64,000 nt of DNA from Eledone cirrhosa (taxonomy: Eukaryota). Below, one piece after another: positions 17,771 to 58,564 of this stretch. Where the stretch lies: contig OZ024743.1 in the NCBI GenBank assembly GCA_964016885.1, positions 164,238,001-164,302,000 of the forward strand. Reading direction: 5' to 3'. The position numbers and the translations under genes are program-made. How positions within the stretch are numbered: position 1 is the first letter of the stretch; each line of letters begins with the position of its first letter. The notes under the pieces were generated by a model. The model saw only the letters and a program-made list of their open reading frames with translations, was not told where the DNA came from and searched no databases.

Positions 17771-18179
17771 GGCTGCAAAGCTCTATGAATTAATATCATC
17801 CTACACCTTGTTCTTAAAAACACCCCATGGTGGTAACATTGGTAGTAGTGGTGGTGGCAGCTGTGTTGTTGGTGGTAGTGGTGCTCTTTATTGAAGACAT
17901 TGCTCAAAACAAAGAAGAATAAAATGTTTTGACTAATGATACAATGAAATACCAGCCACTTTGTTTATAAATTTGTGATTCTTTGTGACATAGTTGCCCA
18001 TTGTTGCGATGGTTATTACTGACAGAGCAATTGCAAACCAAATGTGAATAGATGCATAAACAATTCCAGCTGGTTTCAGTCATATTGCTATAAAATTTGT
18101 TGTTACTTTCTTAGTTGAGAAGGCTTGTTGCTTTGTGGTTAGAAAGTTGGGTCCTTAATTATAATGTCGGAGCCTCTCT

Positions 18180-18990
18180 CTGCAGAAGGGGAAAGTAGTG
18201 GGATCAGTGGTATTTACAGTAGCCAACCAAAATATCTGAACAGTGGATGAGGAATCAGTCAAAAGTCTTGGAAGATGGTATGTCGACACTCTGAAAGTTA
18301 CGAAAAGGGAAGCCGAAACCAAGCTCATGGCAGAAAATGTCTGCAAATCATGAATCAATGTGGCCTTTCTGGCAAATATAAGGTGTGGTGTTTGATCCCA
18401 AAGCTTCTCTGGCCTCTATTGATATACGATATTAGCTCTAGTACAGTGGAGGACAAAATCAACAAATACACAAGGAAGTGACTTGGTGTCCCACCAGGTC
18501 TCACTGATGTAGCACTCTACAGTCGCCAGACCAAACTATGCTACCCCTCAAATCCATCGTTAAGGAGTTCAAAGTCGGAAAAGCAAGGCTCTTGACCATG
18601 CTTCAGAACTTGGAAGACAAGGTTGTAAGGTCAATCTGGCCCAAGCTTAAGACAGGCAGATGGAAAGTCCAGGAGACAGTACATGCAGCAAAAGAAATCC
18701 TTAAGGTCAGAGATATAATGGAGCACACTCAGGCTAATAGGTGTAACAAAAATGGAACAGTGGTCAGAGGCCAGGGGAAAGATGGGGAGAGATCTGATTT
18801 TAACAGGAGTTAAAGAAGGAAGAGGATTCTAGAAGACTCTGGAAGGCAGTTCAGCAGAACCAATAGGACCAGTGGATGACATGGGAAGGTATACTCCAGA
18901 AGTATCTCAGTTGGAATGACATGTGGCATATGGCACCCCTCAGAATCAGTTTTCTCCTCAGATCTGTCTATGATCTCCTTCCCTTAATGC
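18180..18990 (+). mobile_element. Hero-like non-LTR relic
   Basis: GLSGKYKVWC, PKLLWPLLIYDI, LPLKSIVKEFKVGKARL, LKTGRW; frameshifted. Confidence 0.65.
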
Positions 18991-20879
18991 AGTAAGGAGT
19001 TCCAGCTGGATCTGCTCAAAGGGGAACAAAAACAACCTCCAGACCACGTGAAAGGCATCGTGTTTTTATTTTAACACATAAGGGAAGTAACTCTGAGTCA
19101 CTCATTGTTTGTAGTGTTGGCAACAGTATGTTGACGTCTCATCATTGACTGCCAACATTATTTTCCAATTCAAGTTAGTGTTTAAATATAAGTTTGAAAG
19201 TAGAGGCAACAGAAAGAAGTTCCTGTTAGATCCTGTCAACCAAAGCTTCATACGGTTTAAATACACAAGTCTTCAATTTCCAAATGACTAAATGTCAGCA
19301 GAAGGGCACCCAGGAGTCATGACCTAGATGTGATCCAGCCCCCTTAGTGTGTAAGAAGTTAAGGGGCGAAAAACTTGCTTGAGGGGGTTTTCTTCTTTGA
19401 AGACCTGCTGTACAGTTCTCCTGAGAGTTTCTTACCACTAATGTCATAAGTAAAATCCTCAGTGTATCCTTGAACAAGACACTTTATTTCATGTTGTTCC
19501 AGTACACTTAGCTGGTAAAAACAAGTTACAATGACCGGTGCCAAGCTGTATCAGCTTATGCCTTTTCCTTTTCCTTTGAATACCATTATATATATAGTGT
19601 GTATGACAACACTGGGAGTGGGAGCTCATATTTTAGTGGGGAAATTTTATTCTATTTTGTCAGTTTACCAAATAGAAAAGTTAATAAAAGGATATATGAA
19701 AATTCTGCAGTAGACAAGTAATGTGCCATTCCAGATAGCATTTGCCCCTCATCACATAAACGAGACCAAAATAATTATTTAACTGGCCCTACAAGTCTTT
19801 TAAAGTTTATAGAAAAGGACACTTCATTGTTTAAAATTTAAACTATGAAGTGTCCTTTGCTTGAATGTTAGATATAAACACTAACCTCTATATATCATCA
19901 TCATCATCGTTAAATTGGTTTTCATACTATGAGACCAGACGGATCAAATGACACTGTCTTGCTCTTACAGTTCGATCTTGATTTGGTTTTCTACAAATAC
20001 CCATCCTAATGCCAACGCCCTTACAGGGTGCATTTTTGACATGGCAATATGAGGTGGGGCATGCCTGGCTTTCTGTGTTGGCATAGTGGGGAGGTGCATC
20101 TGTCTTTGTGTGTTGGTAAGGGTTGAGCTGGGACAGTAGAAGGTAGTTGTACCATGCTGAAAAAAGTTGCTTGAGCAAGGTGGAGATGGAAGTGAGGGTG
20201 GGAATTGAATGTGGAAGGGGTGGAGCCTGTCTATCTTTGTGTGATGATATAGGTTGACCTGGGTTAGGAGGGAGTGTCTTTCTATCCTGGAAAGTGTTAG
20301 ATGTGCTAAGTGGTGGTGGAGGGGAAAATCTAAGATGCGGAAAGATGTACAAGGGAGATTGATATTTTAGGTGGGAGCCTAATAACTGTCCCACTTTTAC
20401 ACCTCTTCACTACCATCCTCTTCCTGCTCATTTCATTTTGTATGCATGAGAAGTTGGGTCTTTTGTAGTACGGCATATCACCAGCCATCTCGACCCTGCA
20501 TTATCAGTTTTATAGGGTTTAATTACCTGTGGTCAGCTTTCACATCATCCCAAATTTTCGTAGGTTTTTCTCTTCTATAGCCTCCATTATGCACCACATC
20601 TCCTAACCATCACAGTCTTTTTTTCTGTACACTACATCTGACATCTCTTATGCCCAATTTCTCTCTCAATTCATTAATGCTTTGTCATTCACTTATTACA
20701 TGTCAATTGGAGCATGCATACTTCATTTTTTCCCAATCTTCAGAGGTCCTCTGCACACTAGGCCTGAGTCTCACTTCTATACAGCGTTGTTGTTTGCACA
20801 CAAGCATTATATCATCTGCTTTTCACCTTGAGGGAAAAACCTTTCGTAACCAGTAGTGGTAGAAGCTCCCTGAACCTTT

Positions 20880-26439: not shown

Positions 26440-29400
26440 TCAGCATGTACCCATGGGAGGTCGGGTACCCTGTATTACTGCGTGACGCCAGAAGTCACGG
26501 TCGTGTGTCATTGACTTTGAGAGGTGTAGTTGGGTAAGGTCGGCTTTTATCACCTCATCCCAAGTCATCTTGGGTCTCCCCACTCCGCGGTTTCCATCAA
26601 CTTCTAGTGCTCTGCACCTTTTTATGCAGCTGTCATCCTTCATACGCATCACATGTCCATACCAGCGTAACCGCCTCTCCTGCACGCAGCATTTGATTCC
26701 TCTTATGCTCAGTCTCTCTCTCAATTCATTTATGCTTTGTCGTTCACGTATATTACTGTTACACATCCATCGGAGCATGCAGGCTTCGTTTCTCTCTAAT
26801 CTACGTAAGTCTTCCACCTTCAGCGCCCAGGTCTCACTACCATGCAACATCGCTGTTCGGATACACGCATCATACAGTCTGCCTTTCATTCTGAGGGAGA
26901 AGCCTTTTGCAGCTAGCAGTGGTAGTAGTTCCCTAAACTTCTTCCATCCCGTTCTTACCCTAGTTATTGTACTTTCTGAGCACCCACCTCCGTTGCTAAT
27001 TCGGTCACCTAGGTAGCAGAAGCTGTCTACTGTTTCTACAGGGCCCTCCCAGAGATTGGTGGTACTTGTTTCCTGTGGCTGTTTGCTTGCTGTTTCAGCA
27101 CAGCTGCTGCATGTGAATCCTACATTCTTAATTAAGCTTCCTGAGATCCCGCTACATCTCTTGTGTACCCATTGTTTGCATTTGGGGCAAAGAATGGAGT
27201 TCCTACCTACACCTTTCCTACATACTGAGCAAGGCCATTTCCCTGAGGGGATCTGGGTTCTGTTTTCTCGTCTACTTATAAGGACCTTAGTCTTTGTCAT
27301 GTTGACTTTGAGGCCCTTTCTCTCTAGTCCCTGCTTCCAGGTTTGGAATTTATTCTCTAGTTCTACCATAGATTCAGCTATGAGTGCGAGGTCATCAGCA
27401 TACAGGAGTTCCCATGGGCATCCGGTCTTAAACTCCTCCGTTATTGCCTGCAGGACTATGATGAACAGGAGAGGGCTAAGAACAGAGCCCTGGTGGACCC
27501 CAACCTGTACGCTAAATTCCTCGCTATACTCATTGCTAATCCTAACTTTGCTGACTGCTCCCCTATACATGGCTTGTACCGCTTTCACAAGCCATTCATC
27601 TACTCCTAGTTTTCTAAGAGCCCACCAGATTACTGCACGTGGAACTCTGTCAAAGGCTTTCTCAAGGTCGACAAATGCCAAGTAGAGTGGCTTACTTTTA
27701 GCTAGGTACTTTTCCTGTAATTGCCTCACAAGGAAGAGCGCATCAGTGGTGCCTTTCCCTGGTACAAACCCGAATTGCATCTCGTCTATATTCACCCGGT
27801 CCCTAATCAGCTGTGCTATAACTCTTTCTGTTACTTTCATGACCTGGTCCATCAACTTTATACCTCTATAGTTTCCTCTATCTAGTGCATCGCCTTTACC
27901 TTTGTAGCAGTTGACAATGATGCTACTGCACCAATCTTTTGGTATGGCCCCCTCTAGTATTACCTGGTTAACGATACGTGTGGTTATAGTGTGACCTACA
28001 GACCCAGATGCCTTCAGCATCTCGGCAGCTATACCCGATGGACCGGTTGCCTTCCCTATCTTCATATCTCTGATTGCCTTACTACGCTGCCGCTGACTTG
28101 TACTGCTGGTCCCTCTATAGGGTCTACGTGGGGTAGGGTCTCTTCTTCCCATGCATTCTCCTCATTTAGTAATCTATCATAATGACTCTTCCATGCATCT
28201 TTCTTCTCAGCACTTGTGAGGGCAAGCTCACCTTTATCATTCCGGATACACTTCTCTCCAATGACATCACAACTATCTCTGACACACTGCCTCGCAATCT
28301 TGAATACCTCCTGTTTCTGGTCCTCACGTTGTAAAACATGCTTGAATTTTCTATCCTCTGCTTCCCTCCTAGCTAAGTATACTTGTCGCCTAGCTTCCCT
28401 CTTGGTCTCTATGTAATGTACCCTGCTCCCCCCGTTCTTCCATTCTTTCCATGCCTGTCTCTTGGCCTTGACTGCTTCATCTACCTTATTGTTCCACCAC
28501 CAAGTCACTCTCCTCCTGCTTGAGGTCTTACTCCAGCCACAAACCTCATCCGTCGCCTCTAGTAAGTTATTTTTTAGGAACTCCCAGTTCTCTTCTACGT
28601 TAAATGTCTCTATCTGTTCTTCTTTACTGTCGTAGGCGTTGAGTAAAATATCTTTAAATCTGTTACTGGTTGAGGGGACTTTCAGCTTCCAGATCTTTCT
28701 TCTCCAGGTTGGCCTCTGTTTCAGGGCTCGTCTAGTTCTGACCGTGAGGTCGCTGACAACTAAGCTATGTTGGGATGTACATTCCTCACTAGGGAAGGCT
28801 TTTGTGTTTACGACCGTCCATCTGTCACGTCCTCTGATGAGGATAAAATCTAACTGACTAGAGTGCTCCCCTGATCTATAGGTGATCAGGTGGTTGTCGG
28901 GTTTTTTAAAGTTTGTGTTACATATCGACATGTCATTGGCGTCGCAGAATTCTAGAAGTCTGAATCCTTCCTCATTCCTTGTGCCAACTCCATGGCCTCC
29001 ATGTACTCTATTGAAGCCGTCGCAGTGTTTACCTACGTGTCCGTTAAAATCTCCTGCAATGATTAGGAAGTCCTTGTCGTCTGTTAGAGCAGTAGTGTGT
29101 ATTAGGGACTCGTAAAACCTATCCTTAAGTTCGTCTGGCAGCCCCGATTGGGGTGCGTAAGCTGATATTATTGTGGTAATTGTCTTATTCAGGACTAGTC
29201 TGAGTTTAATGATTCTTGCATTTACCCTGTACACTGAGATTACTTTATCTACCCACTTGTCAGCTAATAGTATACCTACACCACCCATCCCATCGTCATT
29301 TCCCACCCAGAAAAATTTGTAGCACTGGCTTTTTCCTACAAGGACTCTAGCAGACCCTCCTCTCCATCTAGTCTCTTGCACACAGCATACATCAACTTCC

Positions 29401-29795: not shown

Positions 29796-31546
29796 GGTAG
29801 GAACTGAGGGTCGCATGGTAAATATCCAAGTTAATACTACATCAGTAAAATTAACAATAATAACGTCATGAAAAAAGCTACTAAGAGAAACCCTCGAAAA
29901 TTTATCGCTAATACAGCAGGGAAAATTTAACGCTAATACAGCAGGGAACATCATAATATTAACGACAATATGTAGGCTAAAATACCTTCGTAGATTAGAT
30001 GGATGGCTGGCTGGGAAAATTGGAATCAGCTCTAGTGGTACATTTTAGCAGAGAAGAATGGGAAAGTGTCTTATCTCTTCAATATTTTCAGATTGAATGA
30101 ATTAGGTTAAAGACAGGGTAGTAAGCCTTAAAGAAGTGCATAGAGAGGGGGGGGGGGGTAGGAACTGAGGGCCGCATGGTAAATATCCAAGTTAATACTA
30201 CATCAGTAAAATTAACAATAATAACGTCATGAAAAAAGCTACTAAGAGAAACCCTCGAAAATTTATCGCTAATACAGCAGGGAAAATTTAACGCTAATAC
30301 AGCAGGGAACATCATAATATTAACGACAATATGTAGGCTAAAATACCTTCGTAGATTAGATGGATGGCTGGCTGGGAAAATTGGAATCAGCTCTAGTGGT
30401 ACATTTTAGCAGAGAAGAATGGGAAAGTGTCTTATCTCTTCAATATTTTCAGATTGAATGAATTAGGTTAAAGACAGGGTAGTAAGCCTTAAAGAAGTGC
30501 ATAGAGAGGGGGGGGTAGGAACTGAGGGCCGCATGGTAAATATCCAAGTTAATACTACATCAGTAAAATTAACAATAATAACGTCATGAAAAAAGCTACT
30601 AAGAGAAACCCTCGAAAATTTATCGCTAATACAGCAGGGAAAATTTAACGCTAATACAGCAGGGAACATCATAATATTAACGACAATATGTAGGCTAAAA
30701 TACCTTCGTAGATTAGATGGATGGCTGGCTGGGAAAATTGGAATCAGCTCTAGTGGTACATTTTAGCAGAGAAGAATGGGAAAGTGTCTTATCTCTTCAA
30801 TATTTTCAGATTGAATGAATTAGGTTAAAGACAGGGTAGTAAGCCTTAAAGAAGTGCATAGAGAGGGGGGGGGGGGTAGGAACTGAGGGCCGCATGGTAA
30901 ATATCCAAGTTAATACTACATCAGTAAAATTAACAATAATAACGTCATGAAAAAAGCTACTAAGAGAAACCCTCGAAAATTTATCGCTAATACAGCAGGG
31001 AAAATTTAACGCTAATACAGCAGGGAACATCATAATATTAACGACAATATGTAGGCTAAAATACCTTCGTAGATTAGATGGATGGCTGGCTGGGAAAATT
31101 GGAATCAGCTCTAGTGGTACATTTTAGCAGAGAAGAATGGGAAAGTGTCTTATCTCTTCAATATTTTCAGATTGAATGAATTAGGGTCATGAAAAAAGCT
31201 ACTAAGAGAAACCCTCGAAAATTTATCGCTAATACAGCAGGGAAAATTTAACGCTAATACAGCAGGGAACATCATAATATTAACGACAATATGTAGGCTA
31301 AAATACCTTCGTAGATTAGATGGATGGCTGGCTGGGAAAATTGGAATCAGCTCTAGTGGTACATTTTAGCAGAGAAGAATGGGAAAGTGTCTTATCTCTT
31401 CAATATTTTCAGATTGAATGAATTAGGTTAAAGACAGGGTAGTAAGCCTTAAAGAAGTGCATAGAGAGGGGGGGGGGGTAGGAACTGAGGGCCGCATGGT
31501 AAATATCCAAGTTAATACTACATCAGTAAAATTAACAATAATAACG
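29796..31546. repeat. Tandem array of ~357-361 bp near-identical units
   Basis: Unit starts at 29797, 30158, 30515, 30876 and 31478; a deletion junction near 31186; units differ mainly in poly-G length. Confidence 0.95.
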
Positions 31547-39857: not shown

Positions 39858-40366
39858 GGTCGTTTTGGAAGCCTCAACAATGCAGATGGGTAAATCTCCG
39901 GGTAACAGAATCCAGTGGTGAATAGAGAGATGTAAGGGAATGTAGAATGAGATGTATAGTGTGTAGAGCAACATAGGAAAGAGCGTAAAAAATAAAAATA
40001 ATAACACAAGATAGAGTTACCTTGGGAGAGATTTAATTGTCCCTATATTTCGGATTCGCATCCATCAACTGGGGGTTTTCCGGGAGGAAAGTTATGTCGG
40101 AGGCCATGTACCGTTCCTCTCCAACAGATAACTTTCCCCCCAGAAAACCCCCCGGTTGATGGATGCGAATCCGAAATATAGAGACAATTAAATCTCTCCC
40201 AAGGTAACTCTATCTTGTGTTATTATTTTTATGTTTTACGCTCTTTCCTACGTTCCTCTACACACTATACATCTCATTCTACATTCCCTTACATCTCTCT
40301 CTTCACCACCGGATTCTGTTACCCGGAGATTTGCCCACCTGCATTGTTGAGGCTTCCAAAACGACC
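39858..40366. repeat. Fold-back palindrome, ~245-bp arms, probably a Penelope pLTR inversion
   Basis: GGTCGTTTTGGAAGCCTCAACAATGCAG... / ...CTGCATTGTTGAGGCTTCCAAAACGACC with scattered mismatches and a short loop. Confidence 0.9.
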
Positions 40367-41014: not shown

Positions 41015-41722
41015 TCGCTATCACTTCTTTCCCTCATGGCTTTATGATAGATAAAAGGCTATGGGCACTATGGATCGATGTTCTGTTTATGATGCACCGA
41101 AACATCCGCAGCCCGTAGTAAACAGCTGACGAAGGGAAACTTTCCATTTCTTGTTTGTGTCACCTTACCTTCTAACACTCGTTATCAGTAACCTCACAGC
41201 CTCGCTTTCCTCAACCAATATTTTTGTATTTACTGCTGTCACCTCCTCTCTACCTGTCTCACCCGATTTGTTGTTCCAGGTCGGGCTTATGTCCTGCCAC
41301 ACTTTTGGATCAACTCCCTCCCTTTCTCTCTCTCTATCCCTCTTACTCACCCCTTCTCACTTCCGGTTTCTCCGTCTCTATCTCTCTCTCTAAACTAACT
41401 TTACTGAGAATAGCCACGGAATTACCTGCTCCCCTGTTATGGCCACCGGGCTTAGACCCATCAGCTTGGTATAACTTGATCTATTTTCTCTTCGGTTACT
41501 CACATACATGTGCCATTGTCCTGTGTTCCCCCTTCTGTCGGTATGTTTACTTCATTTTTTCCTTTTTTGTTTTCTTTCTTTCTCTCTTCGCTATCACTTC
41601 TTTCCCTCATGGCTTTTTGATAGCTAAAAGGCTATGGATCGATGTTGTTTATGATCCATAGTAAACAGCTGACGAAGGGAAACTTTCCATCTCTTGTTTG
41701 TGTTCCCTTACCGTCTAACACT
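41015..41722 (+). mobile_element. Non-coding retrozyme-like repeat, 573-bp period plus terminal direct repeat
   Basis: 41015-41179 recurs at 41588-41722, followed by (TA)n; homologous to 57991-58564(-). Confidence 0.8.
41077..41139 (+). ncRNA. Candidate non-circularly permuted hammerhead ribozyme
   Basis: GATGT-T-CTGTTTA ... CC-GAAACATC ... TAAACAG-CTGACGA-AGGG. Confidence 0.65.
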
Positions 41723-41844: not shown

Positions 41845-41880
41845 TCTTCTGATGAAGGACTAGCGTCCGAAACGTTAAGA
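41845..41880 (+). ncRNA. Minimal type I hammerhead with intact core
   Basis: TCTT-CTGATGA-A-GGAC-TAGC-GTCC-GAAACGT-T-AAGA. Confidence 0.85.
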
Positions 41881-41976: not shown

Positions 41977-42172
41977 AGTTTTAATATAGATGAGATTCTA
42001 CAGGATTAGAACTGTTTCATTCTTTAGAAATCAGATTCCTGATGATTTCTAAAGAATGAAACAGTTCTAGTCCTGTAGAATCTCATCTATATTAAAACTT
42101 TTATACTCTGCAATGTATTGAGTACCTTACTTACTGTGGTTACCTCCGATTCAACCCAGAATAACGTACCTA
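41977..42172 (+). mobile_element. Short Penelope-like pLTR remnant with a 57-bp-arm palindrome between (TA)n tracts
   Basis: 41977-42033 and 42043-42099 are inverted with 1 mismatch; CTGATGA...GAAACAGTTCTAGTC motif; related relic near 62190. Confidence 0.75.
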
Positions 42173-57990: not shown

Positions 57991-58564
57991 ACATTAAATA
58001 TGGATTGAGAGGGACGAGGGTGTGTGGTTACTGATAACAAGTGTTAGAAAAAATAACACAAACAAGAGATAGACATTTTCCCTTCATCAGTTGTCTGCTA
58101 TTGGTCACAGATGTTTCAGCTCATTATACACAATACATCTATCCGTAGCGCACCCATAACTTATCAACAAGTTATGAGGGAAAAAAAGACGAAAAAGAGG
58201 CGATATCAGAGAGAGAGAAAGAAGAAAGAGGAAAAAAAAACATACTGATAGAAGGGGAAACACAGGACAATGGCACATGTAAGTAAGTAACCCAGGAGAG
58301 AGAGAGGTCGAAGTTAAAAAAAAGCAGTTGGGTTTAAGCCCAGGGGGCCTTATTAACAGCGAGAGAACACGTCTGTTGTTGATGAGAGGGGGAGAAAGGG
58401 AGGAGGAGAGAAAAGAGTTAATCCAAGAAGGTGGTCTGACCAGGAATAACAAAAACAAGCGAGATCGATAGAGAGGATGGAGCAGAGGTCAGAGCAATAA
58501 ATATGGATTGAGAAAGACAAGGCTGCGTGGTTACTTATAACGAGTGTTAGAAAAGAGAACACAA
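57991..58564 (-). mobile_element. Second, diverged copy of the retrozyme-like repeat (503-bp period)
   Basis: Terminal direct repeat about 57997-58061 and 58499-58564; ends at an (AC)/(TA) microsatellite. Confidence 0.78.
58077..58142 (-). ncRNA. Candidate non-circularly permuted hammerhead, copy 2
   Basis: AGATGT-A-TTGTGT ... CT-GAAACATCT ... AGACAA-CTGATGA-AGGG. Confidence 0.6.

Follow-up and report, generated by a model that had tools for sequence, protein, structure and literature searches.

The window analysed here, a 64,000-nt stretch of Eledone cirrhosa DNA, carries on its plus strand at 41015..41721 a non-coding tandem repeat with a 573-nt unit, present here about 1.2 times, which ends at AACAC 46 nt past the second A9 and then gives way to (TA)n. 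The first unit contains a hammerhead-like motif with the following parts, all on the plus strand: the 5′ strand of a helix that we call X (41028..41034, pairing with 41133-41139); a hairpin Y (41035..41063), flush on X and immediately before G10.1; the 5′ strand of stem II, starting at G10.1 (41064..41068) and decayed to GGCAC, with two nucleotides lost, from the GGCGC of the family; the 5′ strand of an interaction helix (41067..41073), which links the strands of stems II and I; the 5′ strand of stem III, GATGT (41077..41081), ending in G16.2-U16.1; H17 (41082), with a cut predicted 3′ of this base by analogy with hammerheads; the 5′ strand of stem I, CTGTTTA (41083..41089); the 3′ strand of stem II, GCACC (41094..41098; GCGCC in the family); G12-A13-A14-A15.1 with the 3′ strand of stem III (41099..41106; GAAA at 41099-102, ACATC at 41102-06); the 3′ strand of the interaction helix (41113..41119); the 3′ strand of stem I, TAAACAG (41119..41125); the core segment C3-A9, CUGACGA (41126..41132); and the 3′ strand of helix X, AGGGAAA (41133..41139), which begins directly after A9. 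The full hammerhead core (C3-A9, G12-A15.1 and U16.1-H17) is present in this copy, and the segments assigned by an earlier sequence-only reading (GATGT, the site GTT at 41080-82, CTGTTTA, GAAA, ACATC, TAAACAG, CTGACGA, AGGGAAA and TTTCCCT) all lie where that reading had placed them. The copy looks weak because of the lost stem II nucleotides and further stem II substitutions: its stem II energy is −2.4 to −3.7 kcal/mol vs. −9.9 kcal/mol in intact subfamily A, and this decayed family member is therefore likely weak or dead as a ribozyme.

Three further copies of the motif lie in the window. The second copy in the same repeat (41601..41682, plus strand, core at 41669-75) has two internal deletions, one in the stem II/interaction strand and one from the stem I 5′ strand to the stem III 3′ strand; it lacks the GAAA strand, as had been noted for the repeat at 41631, and the upstream stem II strand as well, and is unable to form the core. 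On the minus strand, a subfamily B repeat of about one unit (57996..58552) holds a whole motif at 58076..58184 (X 58177-84/58076-83, Y 58155-76, stem II 58150-54/58118-22, core 58084-90, H17 at 58134), decayed in stem II, the interaction helix and stem I; the core position, the site GUA, the U-A first pair of stem I, the 8-bp stem III and the covarying hairpin described earlier for this copy were all confirmed. Finally, a decayed motif of the same wiring, belonging to a family that we call J, occupies 19296..19410 (plus strand) in the 3′ UTR of a remnant of an RT/RLE-type retrotransposon; its C3 and C15.2 are mutated, and the broken ORF remnant at 18168..18983 (plus strand) is 38-42% identical to an RT/RLE protein that we label P0064. 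Rfam hammerhead models gave no match at 41 kb, at 58 kb or anywhere else in the window (E≤5), and no Rfam family of any kind reached gathering level for the motif.

The strands of the family follow in the order X5′, Y, II5′, Int5′, III5′, UH, I5′, linker, II3′, GAAA, III3′, Int3′, I3′, CUGANGA and X3′. The stems cross, and the nested, circularly permuted three-stem junction of types I, II and III is not found. Stem II of the family forms between the upstream GGCGC and the GCGCY preceding GAAA; the interaction helix is made by the strand right after GGCGC and the bases that immediately precede the stem I 3′ strand; and AGGGAAA, after A9, pairs with an upstream UUUCCCU to give helix X, which passes without a gap into hairpin Y, the last base of which precedes G10.1. 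With AGGGAAA engaged in helix X and the stem II 5′ strand lying upstream, the CUGANGA block is therefore parted from stem II by a four-way junction. In the fold that we propose, stem II would stack on the core and helix X on hairpin Y, which would bring A9 and G10.1 together across the junction. Hammerheads tolerate a single additional base between A9 and G10.1. The pairing of AGGGAAA with TTTCCCT had been listed as a weakness of the hammerhead reading; the pairing itself stands, and it is no weakness, since it is a conserved and covarying helix of the fold.

Searches with variant patterns, followed by retrieval of the upstream DNA (863, 104 and 42 matches vs. 0, 1 and 4 in controls), yielded partners that had been predicted from the pattern matches and were then found: GACGC/GCGTC for stem II, GACG/CGTC for stem III, CTGGGG/CCCCAG and several other sequences for the interaction helix, and TTCCA/TGGAA or CTCCCT/AGGGAG for helix X. 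For the analysis of covariation we chose, from about 120 loci, 34 copies of five equally spaced subfamilies, dropping L036, which was off the spacing pattern. The 35 pairs of the fold are 91.9% paired over these copies, vs. 36-44% in slid controls; by helix, the paired fraction is 94.6% for stem I, 90.0% for stem II, 95.9% for stem III and 93.6% for the interaction helix. Changes on both sides of a pair were seen at 16 of the 35 pairs (X 2, Y 4, II 3, interaction helix 2, III 1, I 4), at least one in every helix, and bear out the covariation claimed earlier for stems I and III; these cells represent a handful of subfamily-level events, and the counts are not probabilities. Of the 65 copies whose stem II has at least 4 bp, 26 show a flush junction (X from the base after A9, Y of at least 3 bp ending at the base before G10.1), vs. 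9, 7, 3 and 9 of 65 when the register is shifted; the 39 copies that lack it are decayed or, in subfamilies C and D, have mismatches near the top of Y. We used this test in place of greedy picks of helix X, which were partly spurious in pyrimidine-rich flanks, and we also rejected another possible helix, of the stem III 5′ strand with sequence past X, as its registers differ between subfamilies A and B and it is not conserved elsewhere. Nested folding of intact copies recovered X, Y, the interaction helix and stem III (z = −3.3, −2.8 and −3.5), vs. folds no better than shuffles for two window copies (z = −1.4 and −1.0). On these results the motif is a real, covarying RNA structure, and very probably a hammerhead fold of S-G-C order with a split core.

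Two simpler hammerhead readings bear on this fold. It is scarcely credible that the upstream GAAA is incidental and that a minimal type I or III hammerhead is built from the bases after A9 (AGG-GAAA...UC-UUGUUU): subfamilies A and B do have, further downstream, another GAAA and a stretch complementary to stem I, but stem II is absent, stem III has 1-2 bp, and no second GAAA exists in subfamily D, in family J, in the retrotransposon family RLE1 described below or in the metagenome copies. It is likewise very improbable, if less extremely so, that the motif is a plain type-SGC ribozyme with a direct 2-bp stem II after A9, flanked by unrelated or inhibitory helices X and Y. Two G-C or G-U pairs are possible after A9 in subfamilies A-H, and in subfamily F, which has an A opposite C11.1 upstream and a G after A9, that G probably supplies G10.1; for this subfamily we infer a junction displaced by one pair, with G10.1-C11.1 retained. 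However, the direct stem II (AGG/CC at the 41-kb copy), which the sequence-only reading had taken as stem II, is 46.5% paired over 5 positions, well below the figure for the upstream strand, and is not the stem II of the family; bases after A9 give 0-2 direct pairs in RLE1 and 0-1 in most copies of families J-M; and the duplex energies of the direct vs. upstream stem II are −0.8 vs. −9.9 kcal/mol in subfamily A and +0.4 vs. −7.1 kcal/mol in RLE1.

The split-core fold is abundant in its host. In the 3.0-Gb genome (1796 contigs), the pattern GTH..GCGCYGAAAC..CTGANGA has 863 exact matches and its reversed control 0; together with the retention of the core between subfamilies, this upholds the non-circular S-G-C strand order proposed at the outset. 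When 3.93 Mb of 2-mer-shuffled sequence was run through a structure parser, the yield was 0 cores. BLAST with two window copies gave 986 and 866 first-look candidates, 40 of each of which were scored, and from these subfamilies A (29 copies) and B (30 copies) were gathered without use of the motif for selection. The column majorities of A and B differ at 17 of 110 ungapped columns and at 0 of the 11 core positions among these. Among the differences are N7 (C/U), H17 (U/A) and two compensated pairs of stem I, where C-G at 1.1 becomes U-A and U-A at 1.5 becomes C-G; six others fall in the region of the upstream hairpin, and two turn a C opposite G into U. An intact core is kept by 19 of 29 A copies and 20 of 30 B copies, and H17 is G in one of the 59. 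In hammerhead numbering, position N7 is free and H17 is any base except G. The conserved blocks are those given in Eckert 2023 (PMC10085705). Conservation of the core in subfamilies C-H and families J-M is not independent evidence, because these were found with patterns that demand the core. Two further tests were set aside: the lower decay at the core within subfamilies (2.2% vs. 5.8% elsewhere), which is confounded by top-hit selection and base composition, and a core test on alignment A2, the rows of which had been preselected for the core.

The nearest known relative is the type-SGC hammerhead HRIMA-1 (Eckert 2023, PMC10085705), which has the S-G-C order, a short I-II linker, all core bases and an additional helix that connects the remaining strands of stems I and II. 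In that paper, however, the stem II strand of type SGC directly follows CUGANGA and the blocks are assumed to be uninterruptible, whereas here this strand lies on the 5′ side, across the X/Y junction. An uninterrupted block C, with a stem II strand right after A9, is not found in the family; in subfamily F, only G10.1 may follow A9. The opening of the backbone between A9 and G10.1 contradicts the assumption of uninterrupted blocks as set out there, and the wiring is a hammerhead variant beyond the six block orders listed there. The novelty had been expected to lie in the family and its host; it does lie there, but is not limited to them, given this wiring and the tie to RLE retrotransposons described below, and the correction of stem II makes the motif more novel than first thought. 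A literature search that excluded most subscription journals, Repbase Reports and bioRxiv supplements returned no description of this wiring or of a hammerhead or other ribozyme in HERO elements.

Scans outside the host genome gave mostly chance matches. A metagenome scan returned at least 119 loci, 2 of the 119 among the matches listed passing the full strict parser; a viral scan returned at least 120 loci, 0 of the 120 among the matches listed passing it, and tighter viral scans found none. Stem I of at least 4 bp follows in 52 of 65 looser-pattern loci of the host genome vs. 10 of 119 loci from metagenomes and 3 of 120 from viral sequences among the matches listed. The complete wiring does occur, in unrelated sequence, in two groups of metagenome contigs (L148/L230 and L149/L161/L222), whose helix X measures 11 and 9 bp; a single mismatch in stem I keeps each of L149 and L161 from passing the strict parser, and L230 is truncated at its contig end. 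In L161 and L149 the motif follows the end of an ORF with a PD..D/ExK motif, and a search of the host genome with this ORF gave 149 matches; no relative turned up when prokaryote genomes and viral contigs were scanned by protein. A further locus, L471 (JBOFCM010000172.1), filed as a bacterial MAG, carries a motif of the same wiring that is 74% identical over 111 nt to the 3′ UTR of RLE1; the motif lies beside telomere-like repeats, and the contig is likely a eukaryotic contaminant.

These protein matches place the motif in a second setting. The autonomous carrier (L371-L391) has a single ORF with a reverse transcriptase followed by CCHC and PD..D/ExK RLE motifs; PF00078 and a weak zf-RVT domain were detected in it, and the CCHC and PD..D motifs were read from translations. 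The best PDB matches of protein P0064 are R2 proteins. The marker GAAACA..CTGANGA lies within 300 nt downstream of 16 of the 30 best RLE protein matches, vs. 0 in antisense and 0 of 90 background tiles; of 40 weaker matches picked from the remaining 119 for reaching the C-terminus, only 6 carry the marker in exact form inside the 300 nt, and one of these looks unrelated by eye. Many other RLE loci show decayed forms of the motif, and the motif of family J lies beyond the 300-nt range of the test. A second pattern (297 matches, 3 in the control) led to families J, K, L and M; of 20 loci fetched, 7 contain remnants of an RLE ORF. In RLE1, the youngest RLE family, helix X starts 5 nt past the stop codon and the helices are X 12 bp, Y 8, stem II 5 (GGGTC/GACCC), interaction helix 5, stem III 5 and stem I 5, with the site GUA and the core CUGAAGA. 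From its placement in these loci, the motif is tied to RLE non-LTR retrotransposons, on the sense strand and just past the ORF.

Two features of the related families may be added. In family K (L408, L411), the Y loop TTGGCCA is complementary to TGGCCAA downstream of X, a possible additional pseudoknot; in family L (L412, L413), the first copy is followed by short tandem duplications of the ribozyme region itself.

The RLE1 protein is close to those of known fish elements. It is 85-88% identical to several fish proteins, and over 347 aa it is 65% identical to Tetraodon AAN12398, which clusters with BAC82599, and 58% identical to Takifugu BAC82598. We take BAC82598 and BAC82599 to correspond to the HEROFr and HEROTn records. 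These are given as AB097130 and AB097131 in PMC2790886, and HERO elements are described in PMC4640811 as mostly non-specific, with some microsatellite targeting. HERO-clade RLE elements resemble the RLE1 carrier in their single ORF with RT, CCHC and PD..D/ExK motifs and in the microsatellite flanks of some; the window family, in contrast, is ORF-less and shares with them the ribozyme wiring only, and possibly a junction motif. RLE1 (L371-L391, L421-L430) stands apart from the other RLE families of the host, which are far more diverged, and it is possible that RLE1 arrived by horizontal transfer. The HDV-like ribozyme of R2 (PMC13708176) offers a parallel, a ribozyme within an RLE non-LTR element, as is predicted here; that ribozyme, however, is of another class, lies at the 5′ end and makes an RNA end, whereas the present motif lies at the 3′ end and is whole in the DNA copies.

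The layout of the repeats bears on how they move. No RLE protein match was found in the 120 window-family loci, and the family is non-coding; 9 of these loci are tandem (periods of 553-791 nt, plus 1030 and 1081) and 15 inverted. In 137 motif copies, the first (TA)4 after A9 lies at 25-60 nt in 23, at 76-115 nt in 73 and further away in 38, and the family has two classes of 3′ end about 40 nt apart, with (TA)n flanks. RLE1 copies end 39 nt past A9; among the 14 ends listed, (TA)n adjoins 4, and 2 lead into the element's own 5′ end, and at L421 a 611-nt 3′ piece lies head-to-tail with a full 3.6-kb RLE1 copy. The junctions of RLE1 and the window family have 18 of 19 aligned bases in common (2 of 3000 shuffles, post hoc). 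DNA copies retain the uncut motif, and their ends lie 39-46 nt or more past A9 rather than at the predicted cut. Since DNA copies hold an uncut ribozyme, the cut cannot set the inserted 3′ end, and a religated or nicked-circle template suggests itself.

The explanation that we favour, and consider fairly probable as a whole, is a self-cutting split-core S-G-C hammerhead that acts in the processing of tandem RNA, with a circle template copied by the reverse transcriptase of a retroelement. In intact copies the self-cut would fall just 3′ of U16.1-H17 (41082 in the copy at 41 kb, which is likely crippled), a prediction that we hold to be quite probable by analogy with SGC ribozymes, which have the same interaction helix and cleave according to Eckert 2023 (PMC10085705). 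The cut would divide head-to-tail tandem transcripts into unit-length RNAs, the ends of which would be held paired via X, stem II, the interaction helix and stem III by roughly 20-30 bp, and which may religate or serve as a nicked circle; for type I retrozymes, circular RNAs and RtcB ligation are reported in PMC7229834. The reverse transcriptase would start about 40-46 nt past A9 and may run beyond one unit, and such copying of a circle could explain why DNA holds partial tandem copies and a ribozyme that is uncut. We regard the circle template as a plausible prospect, somewhat short of even, and the broader proposal that the motif helps these elements process their RNA as likely. End-to-end template jumping is a property of R2-type enzymes, and Zebulon has a tandem structure.

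One rival keeps the hammerhead-shaped fold, and makes it mainly a 3′ UTR recognition structure for a retroelement protein, with cleavage absent or too slow. The uncut motif in DNA copies and the fixed end 39-46 nt past it fit such a role, and R2 proteins recognise a 3′ UTR module (PMC13708176). On the other hand, between families every helix differs in sequence but the catalytic positions stay fixed, with variation at N7 and H17 like that of hammerheads that cleave; we therefore consider a pure recognition role distinctly unlikely.

A somewhat better-placed, though still unlikely, rival accepts cleavage and gives it another role: the cut would limit or end the RNA of the element, removing read-through or a poly(A) tail, only uncut RNAs would be copied, and Penelope-like elements would move the window family, with the motif merely accompanying it. 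The partial tandem (9 of 120) and inverted (15 of 120) loci, the two 3′ end classes and the (TA)n flanks match the description of Penelope-like elements (PMC8557442), which have partial tandem and inverted copies, (TA)n targets and a 30-40-nt tail, and animal retrozymes are linked to Penelope elements in PMC7229834 and bioRxiv 10.64898/2026.07.22.740005. Against this, RLE1 also stands head-to-tail, ends 39 nt past A9 and abuts (TA)n in 4 of the 14 ends listed, and its junction motif is the one common to the window family. The type I hammerheads of Penelope elements are canonical C-G-S without pseudoknots. Penelope-type ORFs (RT/GIY-YIG) lie near some copies of the window family, but past (TA)n breaks or other inserts in the copies inspected among the matches listed. 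The window family likewise resembles metazoan non-LTR retrozymes (PMC7229834; Li et al. 2026, bioRxiv), with non-coding tandem units, one hammerhead each and many dispersed copies; those retrozymes, however, have type I hammerheads and units of about 150-450 bp, vs. a pseudoknotted split-core motif in units of 553-791 nt in the window family. The layout fits both Penelope-like elements and retrozymes, and we lean slightly towards the window family being a non-autonomous passenger with RLE elements, rather than Penelope-like elements, as its mobiliser.

Within our favoured explanation, the widest reading, a seventh natural hammerhead topology, its catalytic CUGANGA block parted from stem II by a mobile four-way junction, serving as an active ribozyme 3′ on HERO-clade retrotransposons across animals, yielding end-clamped circular templates from tandem transcripts and adopted by a non-coding parasite, is offered tentatively, as one more apt to fail in some part than to hold throughout. 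If it were true, the three-block rule for enumerating hammerhead permutations would be broken, which would explain why descriptor and Rfam searches have missed such RNAs; non-circular hammerheads would no longer be confined to anonymous metatranscriptome contigs and would stand at high copy in animal genomes; a clade of R2-like retrotransposons would gain a previously unreported 3′ ribozyme; and the copying of circular or nicked templates, an open question common to Penelope elements and retrozymes, would become testable. A ribozyme with its products clamped together would also be a candidate tool for RNA circularisation.

Ordinary type I hammerheads abound around these repeats. A further pattern (1478 matches, 28 in the control) was discarded as a false positive, as it found mostly an unrelated type I hammerhead family (7 loci read). 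This family (L101-L107; contig C1, e.g. 130881000-130890900), which makes up most of the 100 listed among the 1478 matches, is abundant, tandem or inverted, and has a long stem II and a TATA-palindrome stem III, with one array of 1322-nt period. The same (TA)n runs, in the flanks of L002, L008, L013, L021, L026, L032 and L055, contain several further nested families of repeats with type I hammerheads, some of these families standing behind RT/GIY-YIG-like ORF ends. In the window itself, an ordinary Penelope-type type I hammerhead at 41845-41880 (plus strand; CUGAUGA, 5-bp stem II, palindromic ACGU stem III) sits in a different small repeat directly after the element and is unlisted by Rfam at E≤5. 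The window also contains a 361-bp tandem array at 29796-31427 (about four near-identical copies, plus a 242-bp variant) and long inverted repeats at 40046-40176 and 42000-42077, the latter with CTGATGA and GAAAC and belonging to a dispersed family also present in L012, L050 and L055. Near 27400, the minus strand reads like an RT motif, presumably that of an RTE-type LINE.
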